From Halarcobacter sp. (lineage in GTDB: Bacteria > Campylobacterota > Campylobacteria > Campylobacterales > Arcobacteraceae): a stretch of 64,000 nt of DNA. Position 1 is the first letter of the stretch, and the number at the start of each line of letters is the position of its first letter. The notes below the pieces were generated by a model. That model made no database searches, was not told where the DNA came from, and was given only the letters and a program-made list of their open reading frames with translations. A program made the position numbers and the translations under genes. This document shows, in pieces, positions 13,901 to 31,899 of this stretch. The stretch spans positions 2,208,001 through 2,272,000 of the forward strand of contig CP182352.1 of the NCBI GenBank assembly GCA_048571215.1, in the 5' to 3' direction.

Positions 13901-15119
13901 TATTGGTAACAAGGAATTTAATTCAATAGCTTATAATTTAGAACATTTAAAAGCTATACTTGATCTAAGTAATAAATATATATATGATGAAATATTCTTT
14001 AAAAATATATGTTCAAAAGATGATAATCAAGTGATTGGAGTATGCCAAGCAGTTGAATTGGAATCAATAATTACTGAAGAAAGTGTAAAAGATATCGCAT
14101 CTGCAATTTCTGATAAAATGGGGAGTTCAGTTAGTGAAATTTCAAAAGCTACAAGAGATGGAGTACTAAAAGCAACTAAAGAAATTGTTTCAAGCTATGC
14201 AGAGACCCCACAAGATTTAGCTAATGCTGCAACAATAGTTTTTGGATTTACTAAAGATTTAATTAAAAATCCAAAAGAAACTATTAATAATAGCATTGAC
14301 AAGGTTAATGAAACAGCTGAAATATTAGGTATGTTTAAAGATGAATTATTAGAAGTAATACCTAATCTATCTGATATAATTAGTCATTTTACTCCTGTAG
14401 AGAAAGCATTTTTTACAGCATATATAACTACACATGTGGCACATGAATTAGCACCAACAAGTAAATTAAAACTTGCAAAATTAGCTAAAACTGATAAAAT
14501 AAAAAGAGCAAAATGGCTTAGAATTTCAAAACTTTTACAAATTTCAAAAGAACTTGGATATAAAATAAAATATTCCTATTTAATAAATTTTAATGATAAA
14601 GATTTTGATGTAATCGATCGTATTCTTACAAGAAAATATGAGAATAATCCATTAACTAAATCTGAGCATGTAATATTATCATTATTAGAAAAAGATAGAA
14701 AAAGTGAGTGGAGACCTTGGCTTTTAAATATGTGGTATGGAAATGTCTTTAATGATAAAAGAAGAGATAATTTTGATTATAATGAAGTATATATATTAGG
14801 TAAAAATGGAGATTATTATAGACTTGATTCATTCAATACTAAAAAACAACCTAAAGGAATCTTTTCGAGAAAAGATACACAAATGTCTGAACAACCTGAA
14901 CAAGCTATCAAGTATTTAGATGAGTTTGCAGAGAAATATCCTTCAGGTGCACAAATTGCTAATGTTCCAAGTAGTCAAAAAATGGGTATAACTGGAACAT
15001 TAAAAGGTCAGATGTATTTAGAAGTTCCAGTACAAAATAATAGTATACCTCAAAATATTTTAGACCATGCAAAAGATTTAAAAATTAAGATAAGAGATAT
15101 AGATGGAAAAATTTATTAA
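10914..15119 (+). CDS. large secreted polymorphic-toxin-like protein with five tandem 101-aa beta-rich (Ig/PKD-like) repeats and a putative C-terminal nuclease-type toxin domain
   Basis: 1401 aa, Sec-type signal peptide, NNAPTI...DSDG..VDFDWNDG repeats; C-terminus NEVYI..YRLDS..SRK.TQ..LEVPVQ..IRDIDGKIY resembles toxin tips; overlapping small downstream gene. Confidence 0.7.
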   Translation: MNFFKIFLALFIFNIYSFAGVTFYDFWIKDSPYLEGKTNNFDAQFKIKNTGSSSLYIQQVEVTILNSNGSYNSNCWYKNVNKTLYPNSSYSSGIGYCTLNSTGDFKVVAKVKYGNNYYDSPTKHSITVTAPVNNAPTIEKSGTQPTTVEVGKPIAFALRAKDSDGNLSSVDFDWNDGSSNEVVGKSAAGTYENLVFSRTFNKTGNFTASATAYDKDGAKSGRIQFSFSVTAPVNNAPTIEKSGTQPTTVEVGKPIAFALRAKDSDGNLSSVDFDWNDGSSNEVVGKSAAGTYENLVFSRTFNKTGNFTASATAYDKDGAKSGRIQFSFSVTAPVNNAPTIEKSGTQPTTVEVGKPIAFALRAKDSDGNLSSVDFDWNDGSSNEVVGKSAAGTYENLVFSRTFNKTGNFTASATAYDKDGAKSGRIQFSFSVTAPVNNAPTIEKSGTQPTTVEVGKPIAFALRAKDSDGNLSSVDFDWNDGSSNEVVGKSVAGTYENLVFSRTFNKTGNFTASATAYDKDGAKSGRIQFSFSVTAPVNNAPTIEKSGTQPTTVEVGKPIAFALRAKDSDGNLSNVDFDWNDGSSNEVVGKSAAGTYENLVFSRTFNKTGNFTASATAYDKDGAKSGRIQFSFSVTAPVNNAPTHISTTITPTQIIEAEDINIKTIFNDVDGDFIVNVKVRYKNINSLSWTELNLSHLSTESNNEIFTGTISGGLVSGEYELQVQASDKENLTDSDVLHTTDWIAVNSFIVKEKGNNIPEIIHISTSGTSTSNSIKTNEETLTVTLKIKDIDGNIDRLEFDFDKDYDLTEDNEKQNFFFNTTDKEITQTISFQYTDDYLENCPNLSGQLYSDILYDGTCWKNHKRWKAIVYDKKGNSTTLIQEGDATHIYSSDGLEKYQLEKKNKEKNVKVEELEKNKKNYDDYISSLLENIDKTLKENDPKLGKFEEQEQIFELSKGGDIISSKLRITYVGREDENDTSNYPANVVLSIKRKDTPIYIGNKEFNSIAYNLEHLKAILDLSNKYIYDEIFFKNICSKDDNQVIGVCQAVELESIITEESVKDIASAISDKMGSSVSEISKATRDGVLKATKEIVSSYAETPQDLANAATIVFGFTKDLIKNPKETINNSIDKVNETAEILGMFKDELLEVIPNLSDIISHFTPVEKAFFTAYITTHVAHELAPTSKLKLAKLAKTDKIKRAKWLRISKLLQISKELGYKIKYSYLINFNDKDFDVIDRILTRKYENNPLTKSEHVILSLLEKDRKSEWRPWLLNMWYGNVFNDKRRDNFDYNEVYILGKNGDYYRLDSFNTKKQPKGIFSRKDTQMSEQPEQAIKYLDEFAEKYPSGAQIANVPSSQKMGITGTLKGQMYLEVPVQNNSIPQNILDHAKDLKIKIRDIDGKIY
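11295..12839 (+). repeat. five near-identical 303-bp tandem repeats plus a partial sixth
   Basis: GTAACAGCTCCTGTAAATAATGCACC recurs at 11295, 11598, 11901, 12204, 12507, 12810. Confidence 0.97.
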
Positions 15120-15687
15120 TAAAAAATATCACTACTATGATCATTGGTGGCAAGATGACAAAAAGCCTCAAGACAAACTTACTTTAGAAGAAGCTCAAAG
15201 AAGATTTAATGATAAAAAACCTACAGGAAATACATTTTATATATTAGTAGGAGAGGATGAAACTGACCCAAAATATATTATTAATTATGTTTCTATGGAC
15301 TTAATTTCAGTCTATAAATTAAATGATAATTTTGATGATATTGTACAAATTTCTTACATAATTATGCATAATTTAGATGATAATAAACTTTATTTGAATC
15401 AGTTCCACTTTAATAAATATGATGGAATAAATGCTATAAGCAATAATTTAATTATATGGTCTTTTATAAAAAATTATAATAATGGAAATCCTATATGGGA
15501 AGTTTTAGAAAAACAGAGAAATGAATATTTAGTTTTTGCTAACAACAAAGAAGAGTATAGTGATATAACTTTTACTATTAATGGTAATGAACAATGGAGA
15601 GAATATCCAAAATTTGGAAACTGGGATTGGATGATTGAAGATTTAGAGTTTTTATTAAATAAATATGAGGAGATGAAGAATGAATAA
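15103..15687 (+). CDS. putative immunity protein for the upstream toxin
   Basis: 194 aa, aromatic/acidic, overlaps the toxin stop; WREYPKFGNWD C-terminal motif; call is mainly positional. Confidence 0.6.
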   Translation: MEKFINKKYHYYDHWWQDDKKPQDKLTLEEAQRRFNDKKPTGNTFYILVGEDETDPKYIINYVSMDLISVYKLNDNFDDIVQISYIIMHNLDDNKLYLNQFHFNKYDGINAISNNLIIWSFIKNYNNGNPIWEVLEKQRNEYLVFANNKEEYSDITFTINGNEQWREYPKFGNWDWMIEDLEFLLNKYEEMKNE

Positions 15688-16773: not shown

Positions 16774-17025
16774 TTATTTAAGTTCCCTAAAAAACTCACA
16801 TATATCAACATCTAAAATCTGGGCAATTTTATGAAGTTGAGTAATATTAAAATGCCTTTTATTTGTATATAATTCAGCAGAACTAATTAAACTTGGAGAT
16901 TTATTCCCCATTTCAAAAGATAAAGCCAATTGACTTAATTCAGCTTCTTTTCTAAGTCTAGCAACATTTTTACCAATCAAGATATGTAATTCATCTTCAC
17001 TTAAATTATTCAGTTTTTTATTCAT
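16774..17025 (-). CDS. XRE-family HTH transcriptional regulator
   Basis: IGKNVARLRKEAELSQLALS...ISSAE...LHKIAQILDV. Confidence 0.85.
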   Translation of the reverse strand: MNKKLNNLSEDELHILIGKNVARLRKEAELSQLALSFEMGNKSPSLISSAELYTNKRHFNITQLHKIAQILDVDICEFFRELK

Positions 17026-17112
17026 TTTACCTCACACTACTATTGTAATGTAAGTATAGATATGTAATAATCTTTTATCAAACTACAATTGTAGTGTACA
17101 AAGGAAAATATC

Positions 17113-17352
17113 ATGAAACCCATCCTCTCAATTCTACTAATAATCCTACTTTCAACATCACTTCTAAGTGATGAAACAAAAAAAGAAACTCAAAAAATAG
17201 AAGAAAAACAGGCAATGACAGATGAAGAGTTTTTAAAAAAATTTATGAAATTAGATAAAGAAGTAGAAGAAGCAAAAGCAAAAACTAAAGCTTTAGAAAA
17301 ACTTGAAAAAAAAGTTGATGAATTGGCAAAAACCCTTGGAGTAGATAAGTAA
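17113..17352 (+). CDS. small secreted coiled-coil protein
   Basis: Signal peptide, AAGGA RBS, divergent from the XRE gene. Confidence 0.65.
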   Translation: MKPILSILLIILLSTSLLSDETKKETQKIEEKQAMTDEEFLKKFMKLDKEVEEAKAKTKALEKLEKKVDELAKTLGVDK

Positions 17353-17433
17353 TCTATTTTTTGCACTCATTTTAGAAATGTGATAAAATCTATATATCTC
17401 CTAAAAATAATTTATAAATCTAAATTATGGAAA

Positions 17434-19026
17434 ATGACTGAAATATCATGAGGTAATTTTGAATCAAATGAAAATATTCCAAAATTAAAACAAACAAGTC
17501 CAGAAGATATTCAAAAAGCGTGAGAAGATATAGAATATTCAAATCATTTACAAAAAGTAAATGATGTTTTAAATGTACTTAATTTTCCTAATAATGCTGA
17601 AAAAAAATTTAGAACTATTTTAGATAAGCAAGATGATAAAACTTTGATTGAACTATCAAAACAATCAAAATGAGATATTCAATCTTTTTTGCTAAATAAT
17701 AGAAAAACTGAAAAATCTACAGAAGAAGAAAAGCATTTAGATAAAAATGTAAATATAAACTCTAAAATTTCAAAAATCAAATCAACTTTTTCTCCTGAGA
17801 TTCTAAGTAATAATCCTGATATTGAAAACCTAATTAACTCTTTTGATTTACAAAAAGATGAATGAGAAAACATAAATATTATTGATAAAATTCTAAATCT
17901 TTTAAAAGAGCCTTGAAAACTAAAATCAATAGTTGATGATTTATGATGAGCAGATAAAAACAATCCAAAATATTTAGAATTCAAAGAAAGTTTAATTTGA
18001 ATAGATTCTAGTTTTGAAAACTATTTTAATGATCTTGAAAATATAAACTCAAAAGATGAGTTAAATACAAATAATATAGTTTGAGAGATAGAAAAAGAAT
18101 CTTGATGACTTGAAACAATTGATTTAAATAGTTCTAATCCTGTTTCAAAACTAAGTTTAATTTGAAGTGATTATAGTTTTGATGAAAAAATTGATAAAGG
18201 GGCGCTTTGAGAGTTAATGAATACAAGTGAAAATAAATTAAAAGAGATTCAAAATAGTATAACTATTTTGAAAAATGTATATACTCCCTTCGATAGTTTA
18301 TTAAATCAAATCAAAACTAACTGGCAAAAACAAGATTTAAAAGAGACATTAAAAAACCCTTTATCTAGATTTCCAAGCAGTACATTTGCAAATTTAGAAA
18401 AGGTTTATAAAGATATTTGAATTGATTCAAATATACAGCTAAAACAATTTGATATATCAAGTTTAGCTGATGTAAAAAATGCTAATGAATTAAGAGTTAA
18501 AATTGAAAATATCAAAACCAAATTTGAACAAATAAAACTTCAAATTCTAGAAAGAAAAGATGAGATTTTAAAAGATTATAAAGCAAATGTAAAAGAGCTT
18601 TTACAAAGAAAAGAAAAAGCCAAAGAAAAACAACTTGAAGTATTAAAATTTATGAAAGCTAGTTGATTTGATTTAATCCCAAAATCTATTACTGATAAAC
18701 TAATATTAAATCTTCAAAATAATTCATTTCAAATACAAGGTTTAGATTTAAATGTACAAAACATAGATTTAAAAAACTGACATTTTTGAGAATCATTAAA
18801 TATAGACAATGAAACTTGATTTAATACTCTAGCTAAAACAAATCTAGTTAAGTTTATGAATAAACTTATATCATGAAATATTGAAGAGCCTTTAAGTGTT
18901 GACGCTATCGCAAATTGAATTTCTGTAACTAATTCAGCAGATTTAAAAAATCAATTTAGAGAATCTTGAATTGTTGATTGATTGGGTTGGAAGTATATTA
19001 AGATTGTTGAGAATTTGAAAAGTTAA
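17434..19026 (+). CDS. hypothetical protein, 530 aa, encoded with in-frame TGA (code 25 inferred)
   Basis: No TAA/TAG from ATG 17434 to TAA 19024-19026; ~22 in-frame TGA and only ~4 GGN; track ORF 18217-18420 is an internal piece. Confidence 0.85.
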
Positions 19027-19028
19027 TA

Positions 19029-19060
19029 AAAAAAGCAAGGTAAAACTACCTTGCTTTTTT
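19029..19060. terminator. bidirectional intrinsic terminator
   Basis: AAAAAAGCAAGGTA-AAAC-TACCTTGCTTTTTT directly after the TAA of the recoded ORF. Confidence 0.8.
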
Positions 19061-19075
19061 ATTGATTAAGAAGAG

Positions 19076-19384
19076 TTAAGATTTAATACCCTTTTTTAGA
19101 ATATGGTAAATCTTTTTATAAGAAATCCAGATTAATACTACAACTCCTATTATTACATAAAGGAGAAACTCCATATTTTCTTTTTCAACAATTATTATAT
19201 AAAGCGTTGAAAAACATTTTAATAAAGACACTATAGATACTAAGACAATTATAATATCTTCTATATTTAACTCTCTTTTTAAAGATAGAGCAACAAAAAC
19301 GTATATAACCAATACAATTAAACTTATAATTTCAATTATCATAATAAAAACCTTATAAATAATTGAGCAATATAAATATAGCAA
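19076..19384 (-). CDS. small three-helix membrane protein (start probably the internal ATG near 19342)
   Basis: Hydrophobic ORF from track. Confidence 0.5.
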   Translation of the reverse strand: MLYLYCSIIYKVFIMIIEIISLIVLVIYVFVALSLKRELNIEDIIIVLVSIVSLLKCFSTLYIIIVEKENMEFLLYVIIGVVVLIWISYKKIYHILKKGIKS

Positions 19385-19407
19385 TAAATATTTTTATGTG
19401 TGTCTTA

Positions 19408-20737
19408 GAGACCGTTCAAAAATCTGTGTCAAGTCACCTAAAGTAACAAATCCATACTTGTTACAACTCTAAATAATTATCCAATCTCCCTTCGAAAAAT
19501 ATAGCAAGTTGGGAGATTGTTAAACTCCAATTATGCACTGGCTGAGTCCATTTTACTTTTGCATTTAATATTCCCATATACAACAATTTTAAAAGTGAAT
19601 TCTCATTAGGGAAAGCTCCTTTTGTTTTGGTTAATTTTCTAAATTGCCTATGTACAGATTCAATAATATTTGTAGTGTACATAATCTTTCTTATCTCTTT
19701 TGGATATTTAAAATAATAAGATAAATTCTCCCATTTATTTTGCCAAGATTGAAGTACTATGGGATATCTTTTCCCCCATTTTTCATCTAGTTTTAAAAGC
19801 TCATCTTCTGCAAGTTCTTTTGTTGTTGCTTGATAAACAAGTTTTAAATCTCTCATAAACTCTTTTTGGTCTTTAGAAGCTACATACTTCAATGAATTAC
19901 GAATTTGATGTACAACACAAAGTTGTACTTCGGTATTTGGATATATTGTTTTAATAGCTTCAGGAAAGCCTTTAAGACCATCTACTGATGCAATTAGTAT
20001 ATCTTCTAATCCTCTATTATTTAAATCAGTAAGAACACTAAGCCAGAAGTTTGCTCCTTCACTTTGGGATAAATATAATCCTAATATATCTTTTTTACCA
20101 TCAATTCCCATCCCTAAAACTGTGTAAACTGCTTTACTCACATACTTCCCACCATCTTTTATTTTATAATGTATCGCATCAAGCCATACAAATGGATAAA
20201 TAGCTTCTAAAGGTCTACTTTGCCAAGCTTTTACCTTATCTATAATTTTATCTGTAATAGTGCTTATTGTTGCACTTGATAATTGTATTTGATATATCTC
20301 TTCAATATGTTTTATAATATCTCTATAGCTTAATCCTAAGCCATACATAGATAATATCTTTTCTTCTATTTCATTAGACATTGTTGTTTGGTTTTTCTTT
20401 ACAAGTTGTGGTTCAAAAGAACCTGTTCTATCTCTTGGAGTATTCAATTCAAAGGAACCACTTGTTGATTTTATTGTTTTAGAGCTTTTACCATTCTTTC
20501 TATTTTTATTTCCTGCAAATACATCTTGAGTTATATGAGAATCTAATTCTGCTTCTAAAGCAGCTTCAACTAATTGTTTTACTAATGGAGCAAGTACTCC
20601 ATCTTTACCATTGATATTTTTACCTGCAAGTAAATCTTGTACAGCTTCATTAAAATCAAATTGTTTTTTCTTTTCCATCTATATCAATCCTTATAATATT
20701 TATTATATCAGACTGACACAGATTTTCTAACACTCCC
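19408..20737 (-). mobile_element. IS256-family insertion sequence
   Basis: Imperfect terminal inverted repeats (GAGACCGTTCAAAAATCTGTGTCA / TGACACAGATTTTCTAACACTCCC) and 8-bp target duplication GTGTCTTA at 19400-19407 and 20738-20745. Confidence 0.93.
19461..20678 (-). CDS. IS256-family (Mutator-like) DDE transposase
   Basis: RNG...PRDR..SFEPQ, YPFVWLDA, DGLKGF, QLCVVHQIRN, YTTNIIES motifs. Confidence 0.95.
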   Translation of the reverse strand: MEKKKQFDFNEAVQDLLAGKNINGKDGVLAPLVKQLVEAALEAELDSHITQDVFAGNKNRKNGKSSKTIKSTSGSFELNTPRDRTGSFEPQLVKKNQTTMSNEIEEKILSMYGLGLSYRDIIKHIEEIYQIQLSSATISTITDKIIDKVKAWQSRPLEAIYPFVWLDAIHYKIKDGGKYVSKAVYTVLGMGIDGKKDILGLYLSQSEGANFWLSVLTDLNNRGLEDILIASVDGLKGFPEAIKTIYPNTEVQLCVVHQIRNSLKYVASKDQKEFMRDLKLVYQATTKELAEDELLKLDEKWGKRYPIVLQSWQNKWENLSYYFKYPKEIRKIMYTTNIIESVHRQFRKLTKTKGAFPNENSLLKLLYMGILNAKVKWTQPVHNWSLTISQLAIFFEGRLDNYLEL

Positions 20738-20745
20738 GTGTCTTA

Positions 20746-21040
20746 ATTTTATTTTGTATTTGTTTGTTGATTTTATTTTAGTGTTATTCGTTTTATCTTA
20801 GTTTTTTTAATTTAATTTTTTACTGTTTTTATTTATTTAGTTTTTAAATATTTTTTAGTTTTTATTTTGTTCTTTTAACTTTGTTTTACTATTTTTTATT
20901 TTAATGTTTTTGTAATTTTAATTTTGTTCTATTTTAATGTTTTTGTAATTTTTTTGATTCTTATTTTTTTAACTTTTGTTTTACTATTTTTATTTTTTCT
21001 TTAATTTTATTTTTTCTGTTTTTTATTTACTTAATTTAGA
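20746..21040. repeat. extremely T-rich low-complexity tract with short internal duplications
   Basis: ATTTTAATGTTTTTGTAATTT twice and AACTT(T)TGTTTTACTATTTTT twice; no ORF in the track. Confidence 0.7.
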
Positions 21041-21249
21041 TTGCTCTTAAATTAGCCAATTAAGACTAATCAAGAGTAGTATATCTTAATTATTTATCTT
21101 TGTCTAGTAAGTTCTAAAAAATATAAATTTATTCACAGAATAAAACAATAAAAAAAGCATTAATTTTTAAATTAATAACTTATTTTCTCTTCTAATCCTA
21201 TCTCAACAAACCAAGTGCTATTATTCTCCCCTAAAAAAAGGAGAATAGC

Positions 21250-22191
21250 ATGAAACTAACTGAAGTTATAAAAGATTTTAAATTTCATTGTGAATATGAA
21301 AAAAACTTAAGTGAAAAAACATTACAAGCGTATAATATAGATTTAAAACAATTTCAAGAGTTTAAAGATTATAAAAGTATAGATATTAAAGATTTTGATA
21401 AATACAAATTAAAAGATTATATTCAAAGTTTATATACACAAGACTTTAAAGCAAAAACTATAAAAAGGAAAGTTGCAGTTTTAAAAGCTCTTTTTACATA
21501 TTTAGAATTTGAAGAAATGATTTTAGTTAGTCCATTTAGAAAAATGAGAGTTTCGATTAAAGAACCTAAAAATCTACCTAAAACAATGGAACTAAAAGAG
21601 GTAAGAAAAGTTCTAAAATATTTATATAAATCAAAAGAAGAATTTTTAGATAAAGATGTTTATACATACAAAGCATTGGTAAGAGATATAGCAATAATAG
21701 AGATTTTATTTTCAACAGGTATAAGAGTATCTGAGTTATGCAGTATAAAACAAAAGAATATAAATTTACAAGCTGGGATTATCAAAATAAAAGGTAAAGG
21801 AGATAAAGAAAGGATAATACAAATATGTGATAATGAAGTAAAAAAAATACTTAGAGAATATATAAATTTATTTAGTATTCAAATGGAAAAAACAGAATAT
21901 TTTTTAGTTAATAGATTAGCAAATAAAACTTCAGAACAATCTGTTAGACTTATGATAAAAAAATATCAAAAGCTATGTGGTCTTGATAAACATATTACTC
22001 CCCATATGTTTAGACATAGCTTTGCTACTTTACTTTTAGAAGAAGGTGTTGATATACGATATATACAGCACATGTTGGGACATTCTTCAATCTCTACAAC
22101 CCAAATTTATACTCAAGTTAATATGAAACAACAGAAGAAGATACTGAATACAAAACATCCAAGGAGGGGTTTAAGTTTTGTAGATGAATGA
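21250..22191 (+). CDS. XerC/XerD-like tyrosine recombinase
   Basis: TGIRVSEL, KGKGDKER, HMFRHSFAT, LGHSSISTTQIY; AAGGAG RBS; TGA stop. Confidence 0.95.
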   Translation: MKLTEVIKDFKFHCEYEKNLSEKTLQAYNIDLKQFQEFKDYKSIDIKDFDKYKLKDYIQSLYTQDFKAKTIKRKVAVLKALFTYLEFEEMILVSPFRKMRVSIKEPKNLPKTMELKEVRKVLKYLYKSKEEFLDKDVYTYKALVRDIAIIEILFSTGIRVSELCSIKQKNINLQAGIIKIKGKGDKERIIQICDNEVKKILREYINLFSIQMEKTEYFLVNRLANKTSEQSVRLMIKKYQKLCGLDKHITPHMFRHSFATLLLEEGVDIRYIQHMLGHSSISTTQIYTQVNMKQQKKILNTKHPRRGLSFVDE

Positions 22192-22193
22192 TT

Positions 22194-22209
22194 GATAATA
22201 GGTAGTTAT
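22194..22209 (+). other. putative tyrosine-recombinase core site (left)
   Basis: GATAA-TAGGTAG-TTAT; exact reverse complement at 25447-25462. Confidence 0.7.
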
Positions 22210-24462
22210 GATTAAGAAATTATTTGACCGTGAACATGAAAGACATCTTTTAAAAACTTTTTTTGAGAGTAATGATTCCTTTTTTATTGTAATTGGAGAA
22301 AGTGGTGTTGGTAAAAGTTCTATTATCCAAAATACTTTAATAAAAAACTTTTCTTTATCAGAAATAATATCAATATCTTTTAAACCTGAAAATAATATAA
22401 ATAATTTTATTGAAGATGAAGATTTTCTTAAAAATCGGATACACAGTTTATATAGTGAATGTAGAAAAAGAAATATAAATATAGTAAAAAATATAACGAT
22501 AGATTTTAAAGATAAACTTTCAACAATATCGACTAGTGTAGGTATTTCAGGACCGGTAATAGGTTTGGGATTTTCAAATAAAAATATAACTGTTGATGAA
22601 GATTATATTATTCAGTTTGATAAAATAATATATGGTAAACCATATAAAATAATATATTTTTCTAATATAGAACTAGCTAATGCAAATGACTTAAAAATTG
22701 TTGAGCTTTTTTTTAAGTTAGTTAGAAATAAAAAATTAAATATAAAAATGATATTTGAAGTAGGTACATTAAGTGAAAATACAAATTCTACTTTTTTAAA
22801 AAAGCTTTTAGAAGAACATGATGTTTTAGTAAAGCCTTTTAATGAATATTTTACAAATGACTTTTATAAGTTCTATCATAAAGCTAATCCACCGATTGAG
22901 CTATTTGCAAAATCAAAGGGCAATCCCTTTTATATAGTTCACTATTCAAAAAGTATAAAAAATTTTGCAATATTTGATTTAATTAAATCAAAACTTGCTT
23001 CATTAGATATAGACTTATTAAATATAGTCTATACATTATATATACTTGGAGGTTCTGCATCTATTAAAGACTTCAAAGAATTAAGTGAAATTAAAATTGA
23101 TACATTATTATTTCAAATTGAACAATTAGAATTACTTGAAATTCTAACAATCTATAAAAATAAAGTTTCATTTTTTCACTCATTTTTTTCTATATTTTTA
23201 GATACGAAAGACTCAGTAGTTTTAACAGAAATTAGTATTAGAATTAAAAATAGGTTGTTAAATGATTTAGAAAATATTCAAGATGATAATATCCTTTTAC
23301 TGATAAATCTTTTATATAAAACTAATGAAATTAAGAAATTAAGAAAGGTTGGATGGGATTTAGCAAAAAAAACATATTTAGAGCAAAAATATAATTTAAC
23401 AATTTTTATTTGTAAGATACTAATAGAAAATATTTCTGAAAAAAAGTTAAAAACTTTTCCTTCTCTTTTACTAATTCAGTCTTCTATATTAATTGGTAAT
23501 GCTCAAAATTATTTAAAGTACCTAAAAAAATTTGTAAGTATAGATATTAATAATAAATATCTTGTTTCATGCATCAAATCACAGTTACTTTACCAAGAAA
23601 ATAAGTTTCAAGAATCAGTAAATGAAATAGAGAGAACTTTAAAAGAAATTAATAACCAAAGGCTTGAAATAATTCTTTTAGGACTGAATTGTAGTAATTA
23701 TATTGCACTAGGAAACTTTAAAGAAGCTAAAAGTAATTTCATACAAGCAAAAAGCCTTGCAGAAATATTAAATTATAAAGAAATTCTTTTTGAACTTTTA
23801 CGACTTAGTCCTAAGATATTTGGTTGGAAAGTGGGAAGTGAGCTAATATATAAATTTACTAACAATAAAATATCTAATAGTTATGAATATACTAAATACA
23901 AATCTAAACATAATTTAGGTTTTGCAAAAATTCTTACAACAGAAGGTAAAGAAGGACTTGATGAACTATTAGAATCCAAAAGTTATTTTGAAATAAACAG
24001 TATGCCAGAAGTCACTTATTCAGTTGTAGGATTGTCTGTTTATTTAATACTAAAAGAATCATTAGATGATGCAATGTTCTATTTATTAGATGCAAAAAAG
24101 TTTTATACTAAAGCTTTTAATATTTTAAATAATAGAGATAAACCTTTATCTGACCCTATACTTGTATATAAATCAAACTATAACTTATCTTTAATTTATT
24201 TAATTTTAGGAGATTATCCAAATGCAAAGAAGTTTTATAATAATATTTCTATACCAACTTCGGCTTCTTTCTATGAAGCAAGAATAAAGAAAAATGAATG
24301 GTTATATAAAACTATAAAAGAAAAAAGATAAATCTAATTAATGATGTTTATGACAAAAAAACTTGGCCTGTGAGTAAATTTAATTTTACACTTTCTAAGT
24401 TAAGTTTTTTTGACTTAAATTTAAAAATCATTACAAATGAGAATCTACCTAAAGAGCTATAG
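22208..24462 (+). CDS. P-loop NTPase (STAND-like) with winged-helix and TPR-like repeats; probable frameshift in the A-run at ~24321-24326
   Basis: Walker A GESGVGKS, KGNPFY motif, helical TPR-like C-terminal half; track ORF stops at 24331 but the shifted frame continues KINLINDVYDKKTW...PKEL to TAG 24460-24462. Confidence 0.7.
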
Positions 24463-25443
24463 CTTTTTTTGTCTTTTTACTGAATATTTGATTAATTGTT
24501 CAAACATATCCTCAAAACTTTTAAAAAATGTATTAGCTACTTTTGAAAATGCAACTCCTGTTAAAAAAGGACCTGTATTTATTTCTAATAAATAAGCATC
24601 CCTATTTTTTATATCATATCTAAAATCCATACGACAATAATCTTTAATTTCTAAAAAATCGATTAGTTTTTTAGCTATATTTACAAGTGTGACATCCTTT
24701 ATACACTTTAATTCCCTAACAAATCCTGATTCTTTTTCTTTTGCATAAGAAGAAATATAGTTACCCTCATATTCTTGCCTTAAAGGTAAAATCTTCCAGT
24801 TATCAGTATGAATACATGCAACAGTAACCTCTTCGCCTAGTAATGCTTCTTCAATCAAAATATCATCAATACCATTTTCCAATAAAACTTTTATATTACC
24901 AATAGCTTCTTCATAAGAGTAAGCTAAAGGGTTTTTTACAAACTCCATTCCAATGCTATTATCAAACTTAGATGGTTTAATAAATAAAGGAAGAGAAAGG
25001 CTAGAAATAGAATCAAATGAAAAGTCATACTTATTACTAAATAATATTGAATTTGAAGTGGTTATACCTTTACTTGTCACAACTTTTTTTAATAAATCTT
25101 TATCTTGACATAACGTTTGAACAAAGGAAGAAGAACCTATATAGGGCTTTTTTATCAAGTGCAAAAATGAAGGAAGATGAGAACCAATAAATATATTAGA
25201 TCCATCTGTTAGATTCCAAAAAATTGAATTATCATATTTTTCTATAAGATTAAATATTTCTTTTCTATTTAATTTATGATAATCTAACAATATAACATTA
25301 AATCCTATACTTTCAAGAGAAGACTTTACTATATTAATTTCATCTAATGATGCTAAAAACCTTGAGAAAACATAAGGATTTTTCAATCCTTTATTTTTTT
25401 TAATCCAATCCTCTCTTGATTCAAAAAATAAAAATATATTCAT
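24457..25443 (-). CDS. ATP-grasp ligase (D-Ala-D-Ala ligase-like fold)
   Basis: PYIGSS, QDKDLLK, PLFIKP..DNSIG, LIEE.L.G.E.TV, RMDFR, LLEINTGP. Confidence 0.85.
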   Translation of the reverse strand: MNIFLFFESREDWIKKNKGLKNPYVFSRFLASLDEINIVKSSLESIGFNVILLDYHKLNRKEIFNLIEKYDNSIFWNLTDGSNIFIGSHLPSFLHLIKKPYIGSSSFVQTLCQDKDLLKKVVTSKGITTSNSILFSNKYDFSFDSISSLSLPLFIKPSKFDNSIGMEFVKNPLAYSYEEAIGNIKVLLENGIDDILIEEALLGEEVTVACIHTDNWKILPLRQEYEGNYISSYAKEKESGFVRELKCIKDVTLVNIAKKLIDFLEIKDYCRMDFRYDIKNRDAYLLEINTGPFLTGVAFSKVANTFFKSFEDMFEQLIKYSVKRQKKL

Positions 25444-25446
25444 TTG

Positions 25447-25462
25447 ATAACTACCTATTATC
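25447..25462 (-). other. putative tyrosine-recombinase core site (right, inverted)
   Basis: ATAACTACCTATTATC is the reverse complement of 22194-22209; with 25446 it forms GATAA-N7-TTATC. Confidence 0.7.
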
Positions 25463-25573
25463 TATTGTTAAATTTAATAAATATTTTAGCAGGTTATTTA
25501 TTAAAACTTTTTGCTTATTATTGAAAAGTATGAGATAATATGAACATAGTTTACTTTACTATTAAATACTTCT

Positions 25574-25984
25574 ATGTTAAATAAATTAAATACAAATACT
25601 TTAAAAGAGTCTTATATCCTTTCTAATGAAGAAATAAAATTATCTAGACAATTCATTATAGAAAATCAAAATATAATGCAAAAAGATTTTGAAGAAAGTC
25701 TATCGGAAAACAAATTATTAATTTTAATTAACCCTATACATGTACCAATAAAAGAAAATTATATACTTGCTATGAAAGCAATAGTTATTATGAAAGAAAA
25801 TTGAGCAAAAAGATTAGATGAATTTGATAATTATTTCAATATAACAGATAATAAACTATCTGATTATCATGATAAAATAAATAAATTAAAAAAGGAAGTG
25901 GATAAACAACAGAAACTTGATGAGAAAAAAGCAAATACATTAATGAATAAGATTAAGAGTTGAGATTATTTAGATGAAAAATAA
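25574..25984 (+). CDS. hypothetical protein, 136 aa with two in-frame TGA (code 25 inferred)
   Basis: Track ORF ends at TGA 25802-25804 but the frame continues 59 codons to TAA 25982-25984, followed by a terminator. Confidence 0.65.
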
Positions 25985-26010
25985 AAATCAGCAATTCTAA
26001 AAAACAAAGC

Positions 26011-26052
26011 AAAAAAATCAAGGTAGTATAAATCTCCACCTTGATTTTTTTT
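26011..26052. terminator. intrinsic terminator similar to the one at 19029
   Basis: AAAAAAATCAAGGT...ACCTTGATTTTTTT. Confidence 0.7.
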
Positions 26053-26104
26053 AGCTAATTGTTTTTTGCCCTTAAATCACTTTTATTTTTTAATATTTGT
26101 GATT

Positions 26105-26437
26105 ATGAATACAAATATACTTATGGATTTATCAAGAAATACTCTTTGAGCTTGATATTTAGATGTTCAATTTTTAGTTGAACTTGTTGAAAAATACAAT
26201 CTTGATATAGATGATATATCTGAAAATATTGAATTCTGTTTTTGAAAAGAGTTTAAAACAGATATAAACTATTTCATTTATGAAGCTTTAACTCAAATTG
26301 CTTCAAAATTTATTGAATCAAATATTGAATTATTTGAATCTGAAAGTAATGAATTTGAAATCTATACAAATTTTTTTGATAGTCATATATATTTCACTTC
26401 GGAAATTGTTCAAAGTGAATTTGAGAACTTTTATTAA
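26105..26437 (+). CDS. acidic hypothetical protein, 110 aa with three in-frame TGA (code 25 inferred)
   Basis: MNTNILMDLSRNTL[TGA]A[TGA]YLDVQ...CF[TGA]KEF...EIYTNFFDSHIYF...ENFY-TAA; no GGN codons. Confidence 0.7.
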
Positions 26438-26456
26438 AAAGTTCTCTTTTTAAACT

Positions 26457-26627
26457 TTAATAATACCTCTTCAAACACTCTTCACACATCTTATGAGAAA
26501 TAGAATAACCTTTAGCATCCCATTTCTCAGTAAATTCATCTAAACTATCACATCAAGGACATAGCTCAATATATTTTCTATCTTCATCTATATATAAAAT
26601 ATTCTCTTTTGCTTCTCTATAAAACAT
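26457..26627 (-). CDS. small zinc-finger-like protein, 56 aa with one in-frame TGA (code 25 inferred)
   Basis: MFYREAK...ELCP[TGA]CDS...SISHKMCEECLKRYY; TGA lies inside the first CxxC pair. Confidence 0.65.
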
Positions 26628-26671
26628 ATAAATATAAATTAATTGGTATTTTAATTGAGTGCTTTGGCGAA

Positions 26672-26810
26672 CAAAAAAAGCGGAGAAAGCTATCACCGCA
26701 AAACCAAACATATTAGATGTATCAATCACATAAAATAAGTGGAAATGATAACTTCCTCCACTCTTTAAATGATTGATTTAAAATAATTCTATTATGTATG
26801 ATTTTGCTTT
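26672..26810 (-). promoter_or_regulatory. structured RNA leader with two alternative pairings
   Basis: 26793-26807 pairs with 26698-26712; 26746-26762 pairs with 26679-26695, all three mismatches being G-U on the minus strand, followed by U7. Confidence 0.55.
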
Positions 26811-27047
26811 TTTACTATAAACATTTTTCTAAATATTTCAAATATATTTTAGAACTTCTAAAATGTTTGTACAACACATTTATACAAAAAAATAGTATTT
26901 TAAAATTTAAAGACAATTACTATATTGATGGTATATTAAATTAGCATTAAAGAGCCTAAAAATAGTATTTTTTTGACAAAAAATAAAATTTTATGCTTTA
27001 ATTAATTTCGTTGCGCAACGACTTTAAAATTTAAATAAAATATTATA

Positions 27048-27413
27048 TTGAATACATTTGAAACCCTTTTAGAGATAAAAACAGCAAAAAAGAATTTATC
27101 TCTAAAAGCAATATATATAAAACATCCAAGTAAAAAATTAAAATGAACCTTTTATATTTACTACTTTGATAAAATTAGTCACTCTTTACATATCAACTGA
27201 ATAAATAAAAAAACTATTTCAGAAAGTTCGCTAGAAGAGATTATAAATAGAGTATTTAAAAAAGAAGAAAATAAAAATAAAAAACCAAGTGTTTTTTACT
27301 TTTCTATGCAAGATGATATTGTGTATATTGATAGAGTTAAATTAAAAGCTCAAACAAATAAAAAATGAGAAATTATAAAACTACTTATTGATAGTTCAAA
27401 ATTATACTCTTAA
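27048..27413 (+). CDS. hypothetical protein, ~121 aa with three in-frame TGA (code 25 inferred; may be truncated)
   Basis: TTG 27048 to TAA 27411-27413 with no TAA/TAG between; no GGN codons. Confidence 0.5.
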
Positions 27414-27658
27414 GAAATCTAGAGATTATCATCTATTGGTTTTACCAATAGAGCAAGTTTGCACATTTTCTAGAATTCTTAAGAATTCATCGAAAAAGTG
27501 CGAAACTTGTTCAGGGAAATTAAATTAAAAATTTATCCCTAAAAACCCTTATCAAAAAAATAAAAAACTTGTGATTATAAATTAAAAATTGATAGTTTTT
27601 TATGAAGTCGCAAAACTATAAAGTTTTACTCAAAATGAGAGATAAAAATAAGCGTATT

Positions 27659-27889
27659 TTATCTCCCTAATAAGAAATCCTCTCTTACAGCTTCTCTACC
27701 CCTTTCTATAAAATATAGAATTGTAGAAGTAAGAGTATTTCTATTTAAAAGCTCTTGCAATTTCTTTAACTCATCATATTCCCTTTGAGTGAAAGAAAGC
27801 ATAACCTTTTTTTCTCTTGATTCTTCTTTTTCAAGTTTAGGTCTTCCGACCACTCTATTTTTTCTTCGTTCTAGTTCTTCTTTATCCAT
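27659..27889 (-). CDS. small DNA-binding protein (RHH-like)
   Basis: GRPK..KKVMLSFTQREYDELKKL; AAGGA RBS; divergent from mob genes. Confidence 0.6.
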   Translation of the reverse strand: MDKEELERRKNRVVGRPKLEKEESREKKVMLSFTQREYDELKKLQELLNRNTLTSTILYFIERGREAVREDFLLGR

Positions 27890-28065
27890 AGTAAAATTCC
27901 TTTAAAAGAATTATATATCAAAAAATATTAAATTACTATGCTTAAACTATTTAAATCTAGTTAAATCTATTTTTTCTTACTTTTTATTAATTAATACTAA
28001 GTATTTATTATAAAATTTAAGTAAAAATACTTTAAAATTAGTTTATATCAAATAAGGAGCCTGTT

Positions 28066-28293
28066 ATGACTAGTGATGAAAGAGTGATATTTGAAACCCT
28101 ATATTCAAAACATAAAAAAATTGCCTTAAGTAAAAAAGAAATGTCTTTGGAGTGCGGGATTAGTGTATCAACCCTAGACAGACTTAGAAAAAATGGCTTA
28201 GGATGTGCATATAAAAAAGAGCGAAATGGAGATATTTTTTATCCCTTAACAGAACTTGCAAAATATTACACACAAGTAGTACAAACTTATTAA
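28066..28293 (+). CDS. excisionase/AlpA-like HTH protein
   Basis: LSKKEMSLECGISVSTLDRLRKNG...IFYPL..LAKY. Confidence 0.7.
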   Translation: MTSDERVIFETLYSKHKKIALSKKEMSLECGISVSTLDRLRKNGLGCAYKKERNGDIFYPLTELAKYYTQVVQTY

Positions 28294-28307
28294 TTAAAGA
28301 GTTAATT

Positions 28308-28670
28308 ATGAGTAACTATCAAAAAGAGTATAAGAAACAATATAATGAAAAGAATAAAATAGTAACCTTTCCATTATCAAATGCCTTTTACAGCGAACTA
28401 AAAAAAAGAGCATATTATCTTGATGTAAAAACAAACTCTTATGCAAAAAATATTGTAACAGAGTATTTAAATGACAATGTTTTTAGAACTCTTACAAGTG
28501 AGAAAAAAGAGATTATCAAGGAGTATATACATATATCAAGAGGTATTGCTAATAACATCAATCAAATAGCTCATAAAACAAATATTGAATCAACAGTAGA
28601 TATTAATATTTTAATATCTTCATTAAAAAACTATGAAGATGAGTTTAAAAAATTCATAACCAAGATTTAA
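28308..28670 (+). CDS. mobC: MobC-like relaxosome accessory protein
   Basis: RGIANNINQIAHKTN motif; directly before the relaxase. Confidence 0.8.
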   Translation: MSNYQKEYKKQYNEKNKIVTFPLSNAFYSELKKRAYYLDVKTNSYAKNIVTEYLNDNVFRTLTSEKKEIIKEYIHISRGIANNINQIAHKTNIESTVDINILISSLKNYEDEFKKFITKI

Positions 28671-28671
28671 T

Positions 28672-29520
28672 ATGATAATTAAATCAATGAGTAGAAAGAG
28701 TAAATCTTTTTCACAACTATATGACTATTTAATGAGAGAAGAGCAATCATTCTGTTTTACAAGAAATGCTTACTCAAATCCCAAAAACAAAAAAGAACTA
28801 ATAAAAGAGTTTATGCAAAATAGCTATTATCTAAAAAATGCAAGAGGTAAAAACTATTTATACCATGAACTATTATCATTAGAGCAAAACAACTTATCAA
28901 TAAAAAGACAAAAAGAGATACTTTTAGATCTAGCAGATAAATTTCTAAAACTTAGAGCTAGTAATCATATAGCTTTTGGTGTAGTTCATGAAGATAAACA
29001 ACATATACATCTTCATCTAATGCTTAGTGCCAATGAAATTGAAGGACAAAAACGAGTAAGACTATCAAAGCAAGAACTAGCTTCAATACAAGCTACACTA
29101 GAGCATTATAAAAATGGAAAATATTTAGAACTTTCTCAATCTGAATTTTATCAAAAAAGAAAAGACCTTTCAAAGATGTACCAAAAAGAACAAGAGATGA
29201 AGCATAGAAGAAATAAACAGCCTAAAAAAGAGATGATAAAAGAAGAATTAGAAAAAATCTTTAAAACAGCAACATCAAGAAAATATTTAGAAAACTATCT
29301 AAAAAATAGAGGTTTTACACTTGATAAATCAAGAGGGCAAACTATAAAAATCATCTATGAAAACAAGCCCTATAGATTAAAAACACTTGGACTTGAAAAG
29401 GAATATAAAGAATTAGAAAAAAGACTAGAACAAATACAAGAAAGAGAGATGAAACGGCAAAGAGCAAAAGAAGAAAGAATCCAAACTAGAAAAAACCAAG
29501 AACAAACATTTGAAAGATGA
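28672..29520 (+). CDS. MOBP-type HUH relaxase
   Basis: MIIK...LYDYL, YHELLS, VVHEDKQHIHLHL; TGA stop overlapping the next gene. Confidence 0.85.
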   Translation: MIIKSMSRKSKSFSQLYDYLMREEQSFCFTRNAYSNPKNKKELIKEFMQNSYYLKNARGKNYLYHELLSLEQNNLSIKRQKEILLDLADKFLKLRASNHIAFGVVHEDKQHIHLHLMLSANEIEGQKRVRLSKQELASIQATLEHYKNGKYLELSQSEFYQKRKDLSKMYQKEQEMKHRRNKQPKKEMIKEELEKIFKTATSRKYLENYLKNRGFTLDKSRGQTIKIIYENKPYRLKTLGLEKEYKELEKRLEQIQEREMKRQRAKEERIQTRKNQEQTFER

Positions 29521-31141
29521 AAAAGGAAAAAGAGATGAATACATCAAAAAAAGAAAAGTTCATAAAGTAAATGATAACCTTATTTTATATAAAATAAATA
29601 TACATAAAAGGTTATTAATGGAATCTCTTGCTTCACTGATTTTACTTATATTATTTAGTATATTAATTATTTCATTTATGAATAAATATTTAAGAGGATT
29701 TGGACTTGGATTTTTAAATCCAGTTTCAATACTACTATCATACATCACAAAACCACCATTAAAAGATGATGGAATGATGAATAAACAAGATGAATTAAAA
29801 CTCTTTTCAAGATTTAATTCAGGGCTTTTAATTGATGTAAAAAACAAAAGGCTTTCAGAAGATGAAAGTTGTAAACACTTAGCTTTAATTTCTAGAACAG
29901 GTGGAGGTAAAACCACCTCATACGTTCTACCTAATATCTATAAACTATCAGAAGAAAAATGCTCAATGGTTATCACTGATTTAAGTGGAGAAATATTTGA
30001 TAAAACAAGTGGTTATCTAGAAAAAAAAGGTTATAAAATTTATGTTTTAGACCCAAATAATCTCGATGAATCCATAAGATACAACCCTTTAGAGTTTTCA
30101 AATACTTCAGTTGAAATTGATACCCTTAGTGAAATATTACTTGCTTCAGCAGGATTAAGGGTAACCAGTTCTGAAGACAGAATTTGGAGTGATGGGGCGA
30201 AAAGCCTTATATCAATTTTAATAAAAGTTTTAAAAGGAACAGAAGATAAGAAGTTTATCAATTTAGCAAACGTAAGATATATGATAAATCAATTTGGAGC
30301 AGATGGAAAAGCATTAAATGAGTTTATAAAAAGATATGCAGATGATAAAACATTAAATGAATATAATGGTTTTGTTAGTGGCTATGATAGAACTCTTCAA
30401 TCCTTTGTATCTAATGCAAGTGTAGCCTTAAGTCCTATTGGAATAAATGATAATTTAGAAAAACTCACATATTCAAATACTATTGATTTTAAAAAGATAA
30501 GAGAAGAAAAATCAGTAGTATATATAAGAATTAAAGAGACAGAACAAGAACAATACAGCTTTCTTTTAAATTTATTTTATACTCAACTATTTAACACCAT
30601 GCTAAATAAAATCCCCGCAAAAAATGACTTACCAATTTATTGTTTACTTGATGAATTTGGTAATATGAATATTCCTAAATTTCCATCTATAATTACAACC
30701 ATTAGAAAGTATAAAGTTTCAATATCAATTATCTTGCAAAATATTAGTCAGTTAAACGAAGTATATTCACCAAATAAAGCTAAAACTATCTTAGATGGTG
30801 GGATAGCTAGTAAACTAATTTTAAGTGGTGCAGATTTAGATTTAGCCTCATCTTTAGAAAGGATGTTTGGTAAAAGGAAAAAGCTAGAAGAAACAGCAGA
30901 TGGAAATTATGTATATGAAAATATAGATGTAATGAGTGCTAGTGAGATTAGAACAATGAAAGACAATGAAGCTTTATTTGTTTATGCAAATAAAAGACCT
31001 TTAAAAATGGATATAAAACCATACTATAAAGATTTTATGTTTAATAGTTTTTCAAAAATAAATCCAAGTAAACAAAAACTTCAAAGTCACGATGACAATA
31101 TTGTTTATGTTGACTTGAACAATATAGATTGGGGTGAGTAA
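29510..31141 (+). CDS. VirD4/TraG-family type IV coupling protein
   Basis: N-terminal TM, Walker A SRTGGGKT, ITDLSGEI, Walker B LLDEFGN, ILQNISQL. Confidence 0.9.
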   Translation: MKDEKGKRDEYIKKRKVHKVNDNLILYKINIHKRLLMESLASLILLILFSILIISFMNKYLRGFGLGFLNPVSILLSYITKPPLKDDGMMNKQDELKLFSRFNSGLLIDVKNKRLSEDESCKHLALISRTGGGKTTSYVLPNIYKLSEEKCSMVITDLSGEIFDKTSGYLEKKGYKIYVLDPNNLDESIRYNPLEFSNTSVEIDTLSEILLASAGLRVTSSEDRIWSDGAKSLISILIKVLKGTEDKKFINLANVRYMINQFGADGKALNEFIKRYADDKTLNEYNGFVSGYDRTLQSFVSNASVALSPIGINDNLEKLTYSNTIDFKKIREEKSVVYIRIKETEQEQYSFLLNLFYTQLFNTMLNKIPAKNDLPIYCLLDEFGNMNIPKFPSIITTIRKYKVSISIILQNISQLNEVYSPNKAKTILDGGIASKLILSGADLDLASSLERMFGKRKKLEETADGNYVYENIDVMSASEIRTMKDNEALFVYANKRPLKMDIKPYYKDFMFNSFSKINPSKQKLQSHDDNIVYVDLNNIDWGE

Positions 31142-31891
31142 ATGGGATTTTTTGAACAATTAAATGCTGAAATAACAAGAATGACAATAGAAAACTTTAT
31201 AGCATTATCTTTAATGTTTTATATCCCTTTTCACTTTTCAAGAAAAGCAGAGAGTTTATTTTTACATCTAGTGTATTCATTTTTAGGATTATATATGATT
31301 CTTTTTACGCAGGATACAAGAATATTAAATGATCCTAAATTACTTGTGGGATTAGGCTTGATTATTCCTCAAATTAGATTTATAATCCAGTTTGTAAAAG
31401 ATTCTATATTTACAATAAAAATGATGACTGCAAATACTTATTATTTCTTTGTAACCATATATTACAAAATTCTTAGATTTAAAGCATGGGTTGAAGATGT
31501 AATCTTGATGTTTAAAAACTTTGAATTTAAACATGAAAAGAAAAACTATTCTTACCATGAAGAAAATAACTATCAAGAAAAAAAGCAAGAACAAAACTAT
31601 AATGAAAAAGATAGCTATGAATATGAAGAATCATCAAAGCAAGAAGAACAACAAACATCTTATGAAGAGCCTAAAAAAGACTATGGAGAGCATGAAAGGT
31701 TTTATAGTTCAAATGCTTATATAGTTTTGGGTGTTAGTGTAGATGATGATTATAATGAAATTAAAAAAGCATATAAAATGCTTGTGAAGATTTATCATCC
31801 TGATTTACATCTTGATGAATTCAAACTATATAATGAGATTATGCAAAATATAAATCAGGCACATGACAAGCTTAAAAAAATCCATAATTAG
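31142..31891 (+). CDS. membrane protein with C-terminal J-domain
   Basis: TM segments; AYIVLGV..IKKAYKMLVKIYHPD...INQAHDKL. Confidence 0.8.
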   Translation: MGFFEQLNAEITRMTIENFIALSLMFYIPFHFSRKAESLFLHLVYSFLGLYMILFTQDTRILNDPKLLVGLGLIIPQIRFIIQFVKDSIFTIKMMTANTYYFFVTIYYKILRFKAWVEDVILMFKNFEFKHEKKNYSYHEENNYQEKKQEQNYNEKDSYEYEESSKQEEQQTSYEEPKKDYGEHERFYSSNAYIVLGVSVDDDYNEIKKAYKMLVKIYHPDLHLDEFKLYNEIMQNINQAHDKLKKIHN

Positions 31892-31899
31892 GAATATAA

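Follow-up and report, generated by a model that had tools for sequence, protein, structure and literature searches.

The 64,000-nucleotide stretch of the Halarcobacter sp. genome analysed here (the window; contig CP182352.1, positions 2,208,001 to 2,272,000) carries a gene for a Xer-like tyrosine recombinase and, directly behind it, a segment bounded by two inverted 16-bp sites that holds two convergent genes, one for a protein with an NTPase and tetratricopeptide repeats (NTPase-TPR) and one for an ATP-grasp enzyme. We consider it likely, with a probability of roughly three in four, that this locus is a recombinase-driven either/or switch acting on an exchangeable cassette, one that probably keeps the producer of an immune-type signal apart from its sensor. 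Both orientations of the segment were found in sequencing data, the site architecture accompanies the recombinase clade in many bacteria, and alignments of relatives show cargo flipped and replaced at the sites. The features of the locus are as follows.

21250-22191, + strand: Xer-like tyrosine recombinase of 313 amino acids (aa), member of the cassette-associated clade and probable invertase (Pfam, conserved residues, tree).
22194-22209, + strand: near recombination site, GATAA, 7-bp spacer, TTAT(G), overlapping the ATG at 22208 (assembly-graph break, family logo).
22208-24331, + strand: STAND-type NTPase-TPR gene, 707 aa, no effector domain (weak Pfam matches, Atlas neighbours, homologues).
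24313-24462, + strand: out-of-frame remnant of the conserved NTPase-TPR C-terminal tail (translation in the other frame, aligned to the tails of P0152-P0154).
24457-25443, - strand: D-Ala-D-Ala-ligase-like ATP-grasp enzyme, 328 aa, apparently intact (Pfam Dala_Dala_lig_C, E 7e-17).
25447-25462, - strand: far recombination site, repeating the near site exactly in inverted orientation (sequence, assembly-graph break).
25483-25491, - strand: motif resembling an extended -10 promoter, TGCTAAAAT, located beyond the far site and pointing into the cassette; probable expression slot (motif; promoter function predicted).

Re-reading of the sequence confirmed the three open reading frames and the inverted sites recorded in a first-pass annotation that had been made from the letters alone. 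The near-site 16-mer begins 2 bp past the recombinase stop, its exact reverse complement is found at 25447-25462, and the invertible segment between the sites measures 3269 bp. The arms are a perfect 4 bp at the left site (GATAA/TTATG) and 5 bp at the right site (GATAA/TTATC). The start codon of the ATP-grasp gene (25443) lies 3 bp inside the right site, and the purine-rich 7-bp spacer is positioned like a ribosome-binding site and probably doubles as one. The exact 16-bp match alone is weak evidence, because the genome (28.5% GC) holds 112 exact inverted pairs of at least 16 bp within 5 kb, three of them in the window; statistics on exact repeats were therefore dropped as evidence. In the 3.6-Mb genome the 16-mer has two copies with at most one mismatch, both at this locus. 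Motifs of the form ATAA-N7-TTAT occur 689 times genome-wide, and only two inverted pairs with matching spacers are formed by them at a distance of 0.3-15 kb, namely the window pair and a pair beside a 64%-identical recombinase paralogue 84 kb away. Since only these two pairs qualify and each adjoins one of the two paralogous recombinases, the window pair stands above chance. A search of the genome for difH-like patterns gave no match, an Rfam scan of 17000-33000 returned nothing and there is no tRNA near the locus.

Inversion, which the first-pass annotation had predicted, is borne out by four sequencing runs (X1-X4) of one study, from at most two samples, which are labelled as metagenomes and are probably the source of the genome. 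Their contigs were compared with the window over 20900-26200. In the assemblies of X1 and X3, 22194-25462 forms a separate contig accompanied by four junction contigs of 44 nt. Two of the four match the window over their full length (depths of 25.6 and 11 in X1, and 23.1 and 20.9 in X3); the other two match over 30 letters and end at the outer edge of a site (depths of 19.3 and 15.8 in X1, and 26.7 and 28.8 in X3). X2 contributed one piece of the inverted-junction type. In X4 the loose letters behind 25462 are the reverse complement of 22180-22193 and those before 25447 the reverse complement of 22210-22223, both as in an inverted junction. About half of the depth at the junctions belongs to the inverted form (49% and 56%); these values are approximate, since contig depth does not equal the share of cells. 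No substitutions were listed over the block in the run contigs. The recombinase gene had no contig cover in X1-X3, which is not informative on its presence. We conclude that both orientations coexist in the sequenced population, which may comprise more than one strain, and that the crossover takes place inside the sites.

The protein encoded next to the near site has the hallmarks of a tyrosine recombinase. Both Phage_integrase (PF00589, E 4e-43) and Phage_int_SAM_1 (PF02899) matched above their cut-offs, providing the core-binding domain in addition to the catalytic R-K-H-R-H/W-Y set, whose residues R159, K183, H252, R255, H278 and Y287 are conserved across 44 aligned sequences. It is not XerC, XerD or XerA, as the scores of 254, 247 and 212 bits stay below the cut-offs of 335, 330 and 220, respectively, nor is it an integron integrase (109 bits with the IntI model TIGR02249, cut-off 265). 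A role as chromosomal dimer resolvase was rejected on account of the patchy occurrence, the presence of a separate XerH in the genome (E 5e-87) and the position of the site pair beside the recombinase's own gene. Close homologues are present in 23 of 184 genomes of the family and 15 of 401 of the order. Judged by its homologues, the genome probably belongs with Arcobacteraceae-like Campylobacterales. A single-protein scan of viral contigs gave no match, and two records of a phage collection (L210, L211; L numbers denote individual loci) were discarded as candidate excised circles, both being linear and devoid of a site pair.

The first-pass annotation had suggested collecting homologous recombinases and asking whether the site accompanies them with different cargo, and it does. 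Recombinases with at least 39% identity were taken as the family and loci of at least 8 kb were counted; the window and the paralogue are among the family loci, as are near-duplicates, and the counts are not independent. An inverted GATAA-N7-TTAT pair with matching spacers was present at 39 of 58 family loci as compared with two of 81 loci of more distant recombinases, a set richer in G+C than the family set. Direct pairs were found at none of the 58 family loci and at one of the 81 distant ones. A FastTree phylogeny of 106 rows, built without L006, L209, the short distant loci and rows scoring below 105 bits, placed 42 of the 43 loci with a pair in one clade of 79 rows (support 96) and 26 of 27 long pairless loci outside it. 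Ten further loci comprised four with pairs, two contigs ending at a site (one of which repeats an earlier locus) and four without a pair. Seven short-read contigs of the family stop within about 12 bases of a site (L002, L047, L054, L075, L082, L128, L130), and several close homologues of both window cargo proteins sit on contigs whose length, 3354-3389 bases, corresponds to a single cassette. Such contigs would fit assemblies that break on mixed orientations.

The site consensus across the family reads GATAA, a 7-bp spacer that starts with T or C and ends with A or G, and TTAT(C/G); a less pronounced AAY is found four bases further out. Thirty-five different spacers occur among 48 cassettes; the identity of the two spacers within 47 of the 48 was built into the search and is not counted as evidence. 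A cassette may follow the recombinase gene or precede it in divergent orientation. Two loci (L032, L129) carry two cassettes each, with different spacers, others have one cassette on each side of the recombinase (L042/L214 and L231), and L074 has nested sites. Some loci depart from this arrangement. Single, partnerless sites with outer-flank-like sequence on both sides at L229:1389-1405 and L230:8916-8932 are possibly empty sites, for which simple inversion offers no explanation. Two tandem family recombinases are encoded at L040:1877-3899 (and also at L014), where the available DNA has no site pair. Downstream of the recombinase in L038 and L039 there is no GATAA pair; instead, restriction-type genes spanning 4.5-5 kb are flanked by an inverted repeat of 13-14 bp that begins with TAGTAAAGAACTA, possibly the variant site of a sister subclade.

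Comparison of relatives allowed both flips and swaps to be placed at the sites. The same cargo stands in opposite orientation in L030 and L035 (94.6% identity over 1710 bp), L043 and L032, L227 and L231, and L031 and L209, and two Aliarcobacter cryaerophilus plasmids sharing one recombinase accession show opposite gene orders. Unrelated cargo on the same platform was found in L030 and L031, which are 97.8% identical through the near site and in which homology ends and resumes at the sites; L048/L078 and L066/L067 break and resume in the same way. Between the paralogue locus and L043 the cargo is replaced at both sites (9.7 kb versus 1.6 kb). Four gut loci with platforms that are 91-93% identical hold four different cargoes, homology stopping at the near site while the far sides do not align at the site. 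Conversely, one restriction cassette, 97.5% identical from site to site, occurs in two contexts (L032/L034). L223 has the mobilisable backbone of the window and a recombinase gene of 81% identity with other cargo, and homology resumes there about 500 bp past the far site. These replacements support the gene-capture platform that the first-pass annotation had offered as one possibility. Because the spacers differ in some swaps (paralogue/L043, L048/L078), exchange could be driven by the recombinase, needing only the first spacer bases, or could be homologous replacement via the flanks.

Which of the two genes is expressed was approached through promoter-like motifs. Passages of PMC3656092 describe an extended -10 box as the sigma-70 promoter of Epsilonproteobacteria. 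In the genome of the window, TGnTA(A/T)AAT lies upstream of 42 of 406 divergent genes (7.3 expected) and is not enriched behind convergent genes (4 of 156, 2.4 expected). Among cassettes downstream of the recombinase, TGnTAnnnT was present on the far flank in nine of 30 distinct flanks (2.3 expected) and on the near flank in three of 30 (2.3 expected); in divergent cassettes the near flank had it in eight of 21 (1.9 expected) and the far flank in two of 21 (1.4 expected). In the window, 20 bases separate TGCTAAAAT from the outer edge of the far site. A strong hairpin stands between the recombinase stop and the near site in six homologues (L042, L033, L231, L012, L130, L059). Given the extended -10 motif on the far flank and the hairpins of the homologues on the near side, the ligase is probably expressed in the orientation drawn and NTPase-TPR after a flip, with weak read-through into the near slot possible. 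The earlier proposal that the expressed gene is the one read together with the recombinase probably picked the wrong slot, as enrichment of the motif in this arrangement is confined to the far flank.

NTPase-TPR fits the STAND plan of an N-terminal P-loop NTPase, a helical middle and C-terminal TPRs. The NTPase begins at the N-terminus with Walker A at residues 30-38. Pfam gave weak matches to TPR, nSTAND1 and AAA_16, all below cut-off, and PHROGs and NCBIfam gave nothing, while Atlas feature scores to AAA_16, AAA_22 and TPR clusters reached 0.96-0.98. A low-confidence structure model (pLDDT 56, pTM 0.36), used solely for TPR/STAND likeness, returned TPR folds and the STAND-TPR structure 6mfv. 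The window allele looks damaged. In alignments with three homologues of 779-784 aa, 30 residues are lost in frame near residue 631, and from about 24321 the conserved tail is out of frame; the shifted tail overlaps the ATP-grasp stop, as it does in intact cassettes. The damage is probably real because the X1-X3 contigs match the window without gaps across the lesions. The NTPase gene is split in L209 as well. The opposing ATP-grasp protein scored 94 bits with the NCBIfam Ddl model and retains the residues of the ATP-grasp fold; as the score is far under the cut-off of 243, an assignment as true D-Ala-D-Ala ligase was rejected. It has 18 homologues at E<=1e-20, and its close subfamily occurs in only two of 184 genomes of the family.

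A census of 53 cassettes (821-9720 bp) in 44 DNA-distinct cargo clusters, for which 92 and a further 18 proteins were scanned, points to a recurring cargo rule with an enzyme on one strand and a sensor or effector on the other. Two-directional cassettes with genes starting at the sites accounted for 41 of the first 48. An ATP-grasp ligase faces a P-loop/TPR protein in 12 of the 53 (10 by ligase Pfam match, L209 and L138 by similarity). Other cassettes carry glycosyltransferase, kinase, aminotransferase, prenyltransferase or methyltransferase genes, opposed by NTPase-TPR, Mrr-NTPase-TPR, SIR2, membrane or unassigned proteins. Four cassettes, in both orientations, pair a Thoeris-like TIR protein that keeps its glutamate with SIR2-SLOG, and the three SIR2-SLOG proteins scanned matched ThsA in PADLOC with E 3e-59 to 5e-151. 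Eight cassettes have one-way restriction-modification cargo. A defence role, as the first-pass annotation had suggested, is favoured by these other cargoes and not by the window pair itself, whose NTPase-TPR allele looks damaged. The paralogue locus (L213, G000:C1:2313810-2324505), which lies outside the window and has a spacer unlike that of the window, has a cassette of 9.7 kb (G000:C1:2314784-2324505) carrying an inositol-phosphate-synthase/SHMT fusion, a CAP12-type TIR, a DegT aminotransferase, a radical SAM protein and a GNAT protein facing a gene for a SIR2-domain protein of 1227 aa. A viral-contig cassette (L131:11320-14689) holds leucine-rich-repeat (BspA/DUF285) cargo, suggesting use in surface or receptor variation, too.

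Taken together, we propose that the Xer-like recombinase binds the two inverted GATAA-N7-TTAT sites with their identical spacers and flips the 3269-bp block. The association with site pairs suggests the adjacent recombinase as the flipping enzyme. A fixed promoter outside the far site would express the gene that starts there, with the spacer serving as ribosome-binding site, such that mainly the ATP-grasp ligase would be made in the window orientation and mainly NTPase-TPR in the flipped one, the other gene receiving at most read-through from the recombinase. By analogy with TIR and SIR2-SLOG in the Thoeris-like cassettes, the two genes may be, more tentatively, maker and sensor of one immune-type signal, and the switch may separate the two halves within a cell while the population as a whole retains both. 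Because the presumptive sensor of this strain looks damaged, flipping may by now do no more than raise or lower ligase expression. A more far-reaching version is rather doubtful, namely a widespread and undescribed class of immune platform in which the two parts of a system are divided among sister cells. Cells in one DNA state would make a mark or signal, such as a ligase product, a sugar or a TIR nucleotide, and those in the other state its sensor or effector. Co-expression would then be self-harming, the recombinase would hold the population near half and half, and protection would act between cells, for example by a signal that is set free when cells lyse, or that phage progeny carry or are tagged with. 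In such a split immunity, differing spacers may let several cassettes flip independently, with cargo exchange like that of integron cassettes.

Several observations weigh against the proposed either/or switch. The runs belong to a single study with at most two samples and yielded contigs only, with loose junction letters displayed for X4 alone; the genome encodes a second family recombinase and XerH, either of which could act on the site. No site pair was found in the available DNA of 19 of the 58 family loci, and near-duplicates make the family loci (53 cassettes, 44 clusters) non-independent. In the window, the 2-bp gap between recombinase and near site leaves no hairpin or terminator and read-through is possible. 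The extended -10 motif accompanies just 20 of 53 cassettes (33 have none), in two cases on both flanks; plain -10/-35 (sigma-70) matches in the region are at chance (49 versus 46), and no RNA run was listed as containing the window DNA. With regard to immunity, PADLOC found no convincing match for the window pair, only a weak mad3 hit (E 2e-4), and an identity as Avs/AVAST anti-phage STAND protein was rejected, NTPase-TPR having no effector domain and matching no defence model.

The locus could instead be a gene-capture platform with inversion as a by-product, both genes being expressed either way from a far promoter plus read-through or from internal promoters. The two halves of a Thoeris-like system, like the parts of a restriction system, normally act together in the same cell. 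There is good support for cargo exchange bounded by the sites, the restriction cassette shared by L032 and L034 also fits, no terminator follows the window recombinase (a terminator scan of the region gave none), and, according to parts of PMC13141974, pdif modules invert too when spacers match. However, capture alone does not need the two-directional layout of 41 of 48 cassettes with genes starting at the sites, the extended -10 motif is enriched on one flank per arrangement, hairpins part the recombinase from the near site in the six homologues and five of the eight one-way restriction cassettes start at the motif-bearing flank, and we regard this explanation as unlikely. We are equally sceptical of the possibility, itself compatible with a switch, that the expressed gene is the one behind the recombinase and is read from its transcript. 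The tight, hairpin-free spacing speaks for it, being equally tight in L001, L002, L003, L006, L028 and L046; the preference of the motif for the far side, TGCTAAAAT included, and the many family cassettes that lie upstream of and divergent from the recombinase, where read-through cannot apply, speak against it.

In our judgement it is very unlikely that two strains living together each have one fixed orientation, or that the paralogue, XerH or homologous recombination produces both, with the adjacent recombinase as a passenger. The metagenome label and the additional recombinases of the genome would allow this, but no substitutions were listed over the block, and the two forms reach comparable depths in two samples. 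Moreover, the distribution of site pairs follows the recombinase clade in the phylogeny, the site is also where short-read contigs from other family loci stop, and 16 bp is very short for RecA. A chance inverted repeat, or a repressor operator before two unrelated genes, can practically be dismissed: common as exact 16-bp inverted pairs are in this genome, recombinant junctions lie exactly at both sites, which refutes it, and the sites are conserved beside homologues, where flips and swaps break at them.

The switch is apparently carried by a mobilisable element, to which the following genes belong (Pfam; L223 backbone).

28308-31141, + strand: MobC, relaxase and type IV coupling protein.

The backbone with these genes and a DnaJ-domain gene extends over 17287-19062 and 25978-31891 and is 68-78% identical to L223; its left part looks decayed, and the ends of the element were not found. 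An IS256-family element at 19408-20737, of which the genome has 14 other near-complete copies, lies upstream of the recombinase. Between it and the recombinase promoter region is a very T-rich low-complexity tract (20738-21048) that is partly similar to L223. Further away, 10914-15687 encodes a protein of 1401 aa whose gene contains five PKD repeats of 303 bp, nearly identical to one another, and whose C-terminal domain is unassigned; a gene for 194 aa overlaps its end, a layout that we take to resemble a polymorphic toxin with its immunity gene. A repeat of about 100 bp at 32395-32492 recurs in similar form at some 25 other places in the genome.

A recombinase next to defence genes is usually taken for no more than a sign of mobile DNA. 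The recombinase clade described here instead appears to run a compact switch that chooses the expressed half of a gene pair and accepts new cargo at the same sites; for it, the locus contributes direct sequence evidence of both orientations, swap breakpoints at base level and the probable promoter side. The 16-bp site together with the recombinase is a search handle for new defence systems and, because the partner enzyme is packaged with the sensor, for the ligands of STAND-TPR proteins. If maker and sensor truly reside in different cells, the locus would provide a testable case of population-level bacterial immunity. A recombinase of 313 aa with short sites and many natural spacers is also a candidate orthogonal inversion tool. 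Our literature search found no description of the system; supplements and most subscription papers were outside this search, and inverton tables (PMC9881135, PMC10028968) could list such loci. The portions of PMC9881135 available treat gene-altering inversions with repeats inside coding sequences and make no mention of ATP-grasp, Thoeris or TPR, and those of PMC8195603 make no mention of recombinases.

In comparison with known systems, the locus lacks features by which Xer resolvases, pdif modules and integrons are defined. In integrons, cargo that has no promoter of its own is inserted behind a fixed one, at a site adjoining the recombinase, and the proposed arrangement is similar in this respect. 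However, the recombinase is not IntI, the sites form inverted pairs (direct pairs at none of 58 family loci), and attC arrays were not seen, attC folding not having been searched. STAND-TPR sensors (Avs/AVAST, MalT-like) share with the window protein the combination of an NTPase and a TPR sensor, and the family cassettes resemble Thoeris in holding ThsA-like SIR2-SLOG with TIR partners. Unlike in Thoeris or Avs operons, the presumptive maker and sensor lie on opposite strands of an invertible block, and the window protein lacks an effector domain. The fimS switch with FimB/FimE, the invertible promoters of Bacteroides and hsdS invertons flip a promoter or part of a gene. Phase variation by a tyrosine recombinase and mixed populations are shared with all of these, whereas here the promoter is apparently fixed and complete genes flip. 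In the G segment of phage Mu with Gin and the C segment of P1 with Cin, serine recombinases invert fixed tail-fibre cargo. These segments and the e14 P segment of E. coli have in common with our locus an adjacent invertase, a fixed outside promoter (predicted here) and two alternative convergent gene sets; they differ in their serine recombinases and in a crossover within coding sequence that yields chimeric proteins. For the e14 P segment and PinQ, PMC12529663 links inversion to phage defence.

The closest parallels are found in Ureaplasma and Acinetobacter. XerC-mediated inversion at mba/UU376 and UU172/UU171 of Ureaplasma parvum, as far as given in sections of PMC3599477, likewise combines a Xer-type recombinase with short inverted repeats and two opposed genes, and the repeats hold ATAA/TTATC-like words. 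There, one repeat lies within a gene and the cargo is a fixed surface antigen; in contrast, the sites described here lie outside or at start codons and whole genes are swapped, the recombinase is dedicated, adjacent and on mobile DNA, and the immune-type cargo is exchangeable. The pdif (dif) modules of Acinetobacter Rep_3/OrfX plasmids, according to excerpts of PMC13141974, share inverse Xer-type sites, inversion between sites with the same spacer, arrays and varied mobile cargo. Inverse sites that bound exchangeable modules are thus common to both; the distinct XerC and XerD arms, the 6-bp spacer, the dependence on host XerCD and the Acinetobacter Rep_3 plasmids are peculiar to pdif. Here, the GATAA/TTATC arms are symmetric, the spacer has 7 bp and likely serves as ribosome-binding site, the recombinase is encoded beside the cassette and the cargo is mostly a convergent pair. 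The switch works like the inversion of Ureaplasma mba or Mu G joined to pdif-like exchange, and it is a member of neither.

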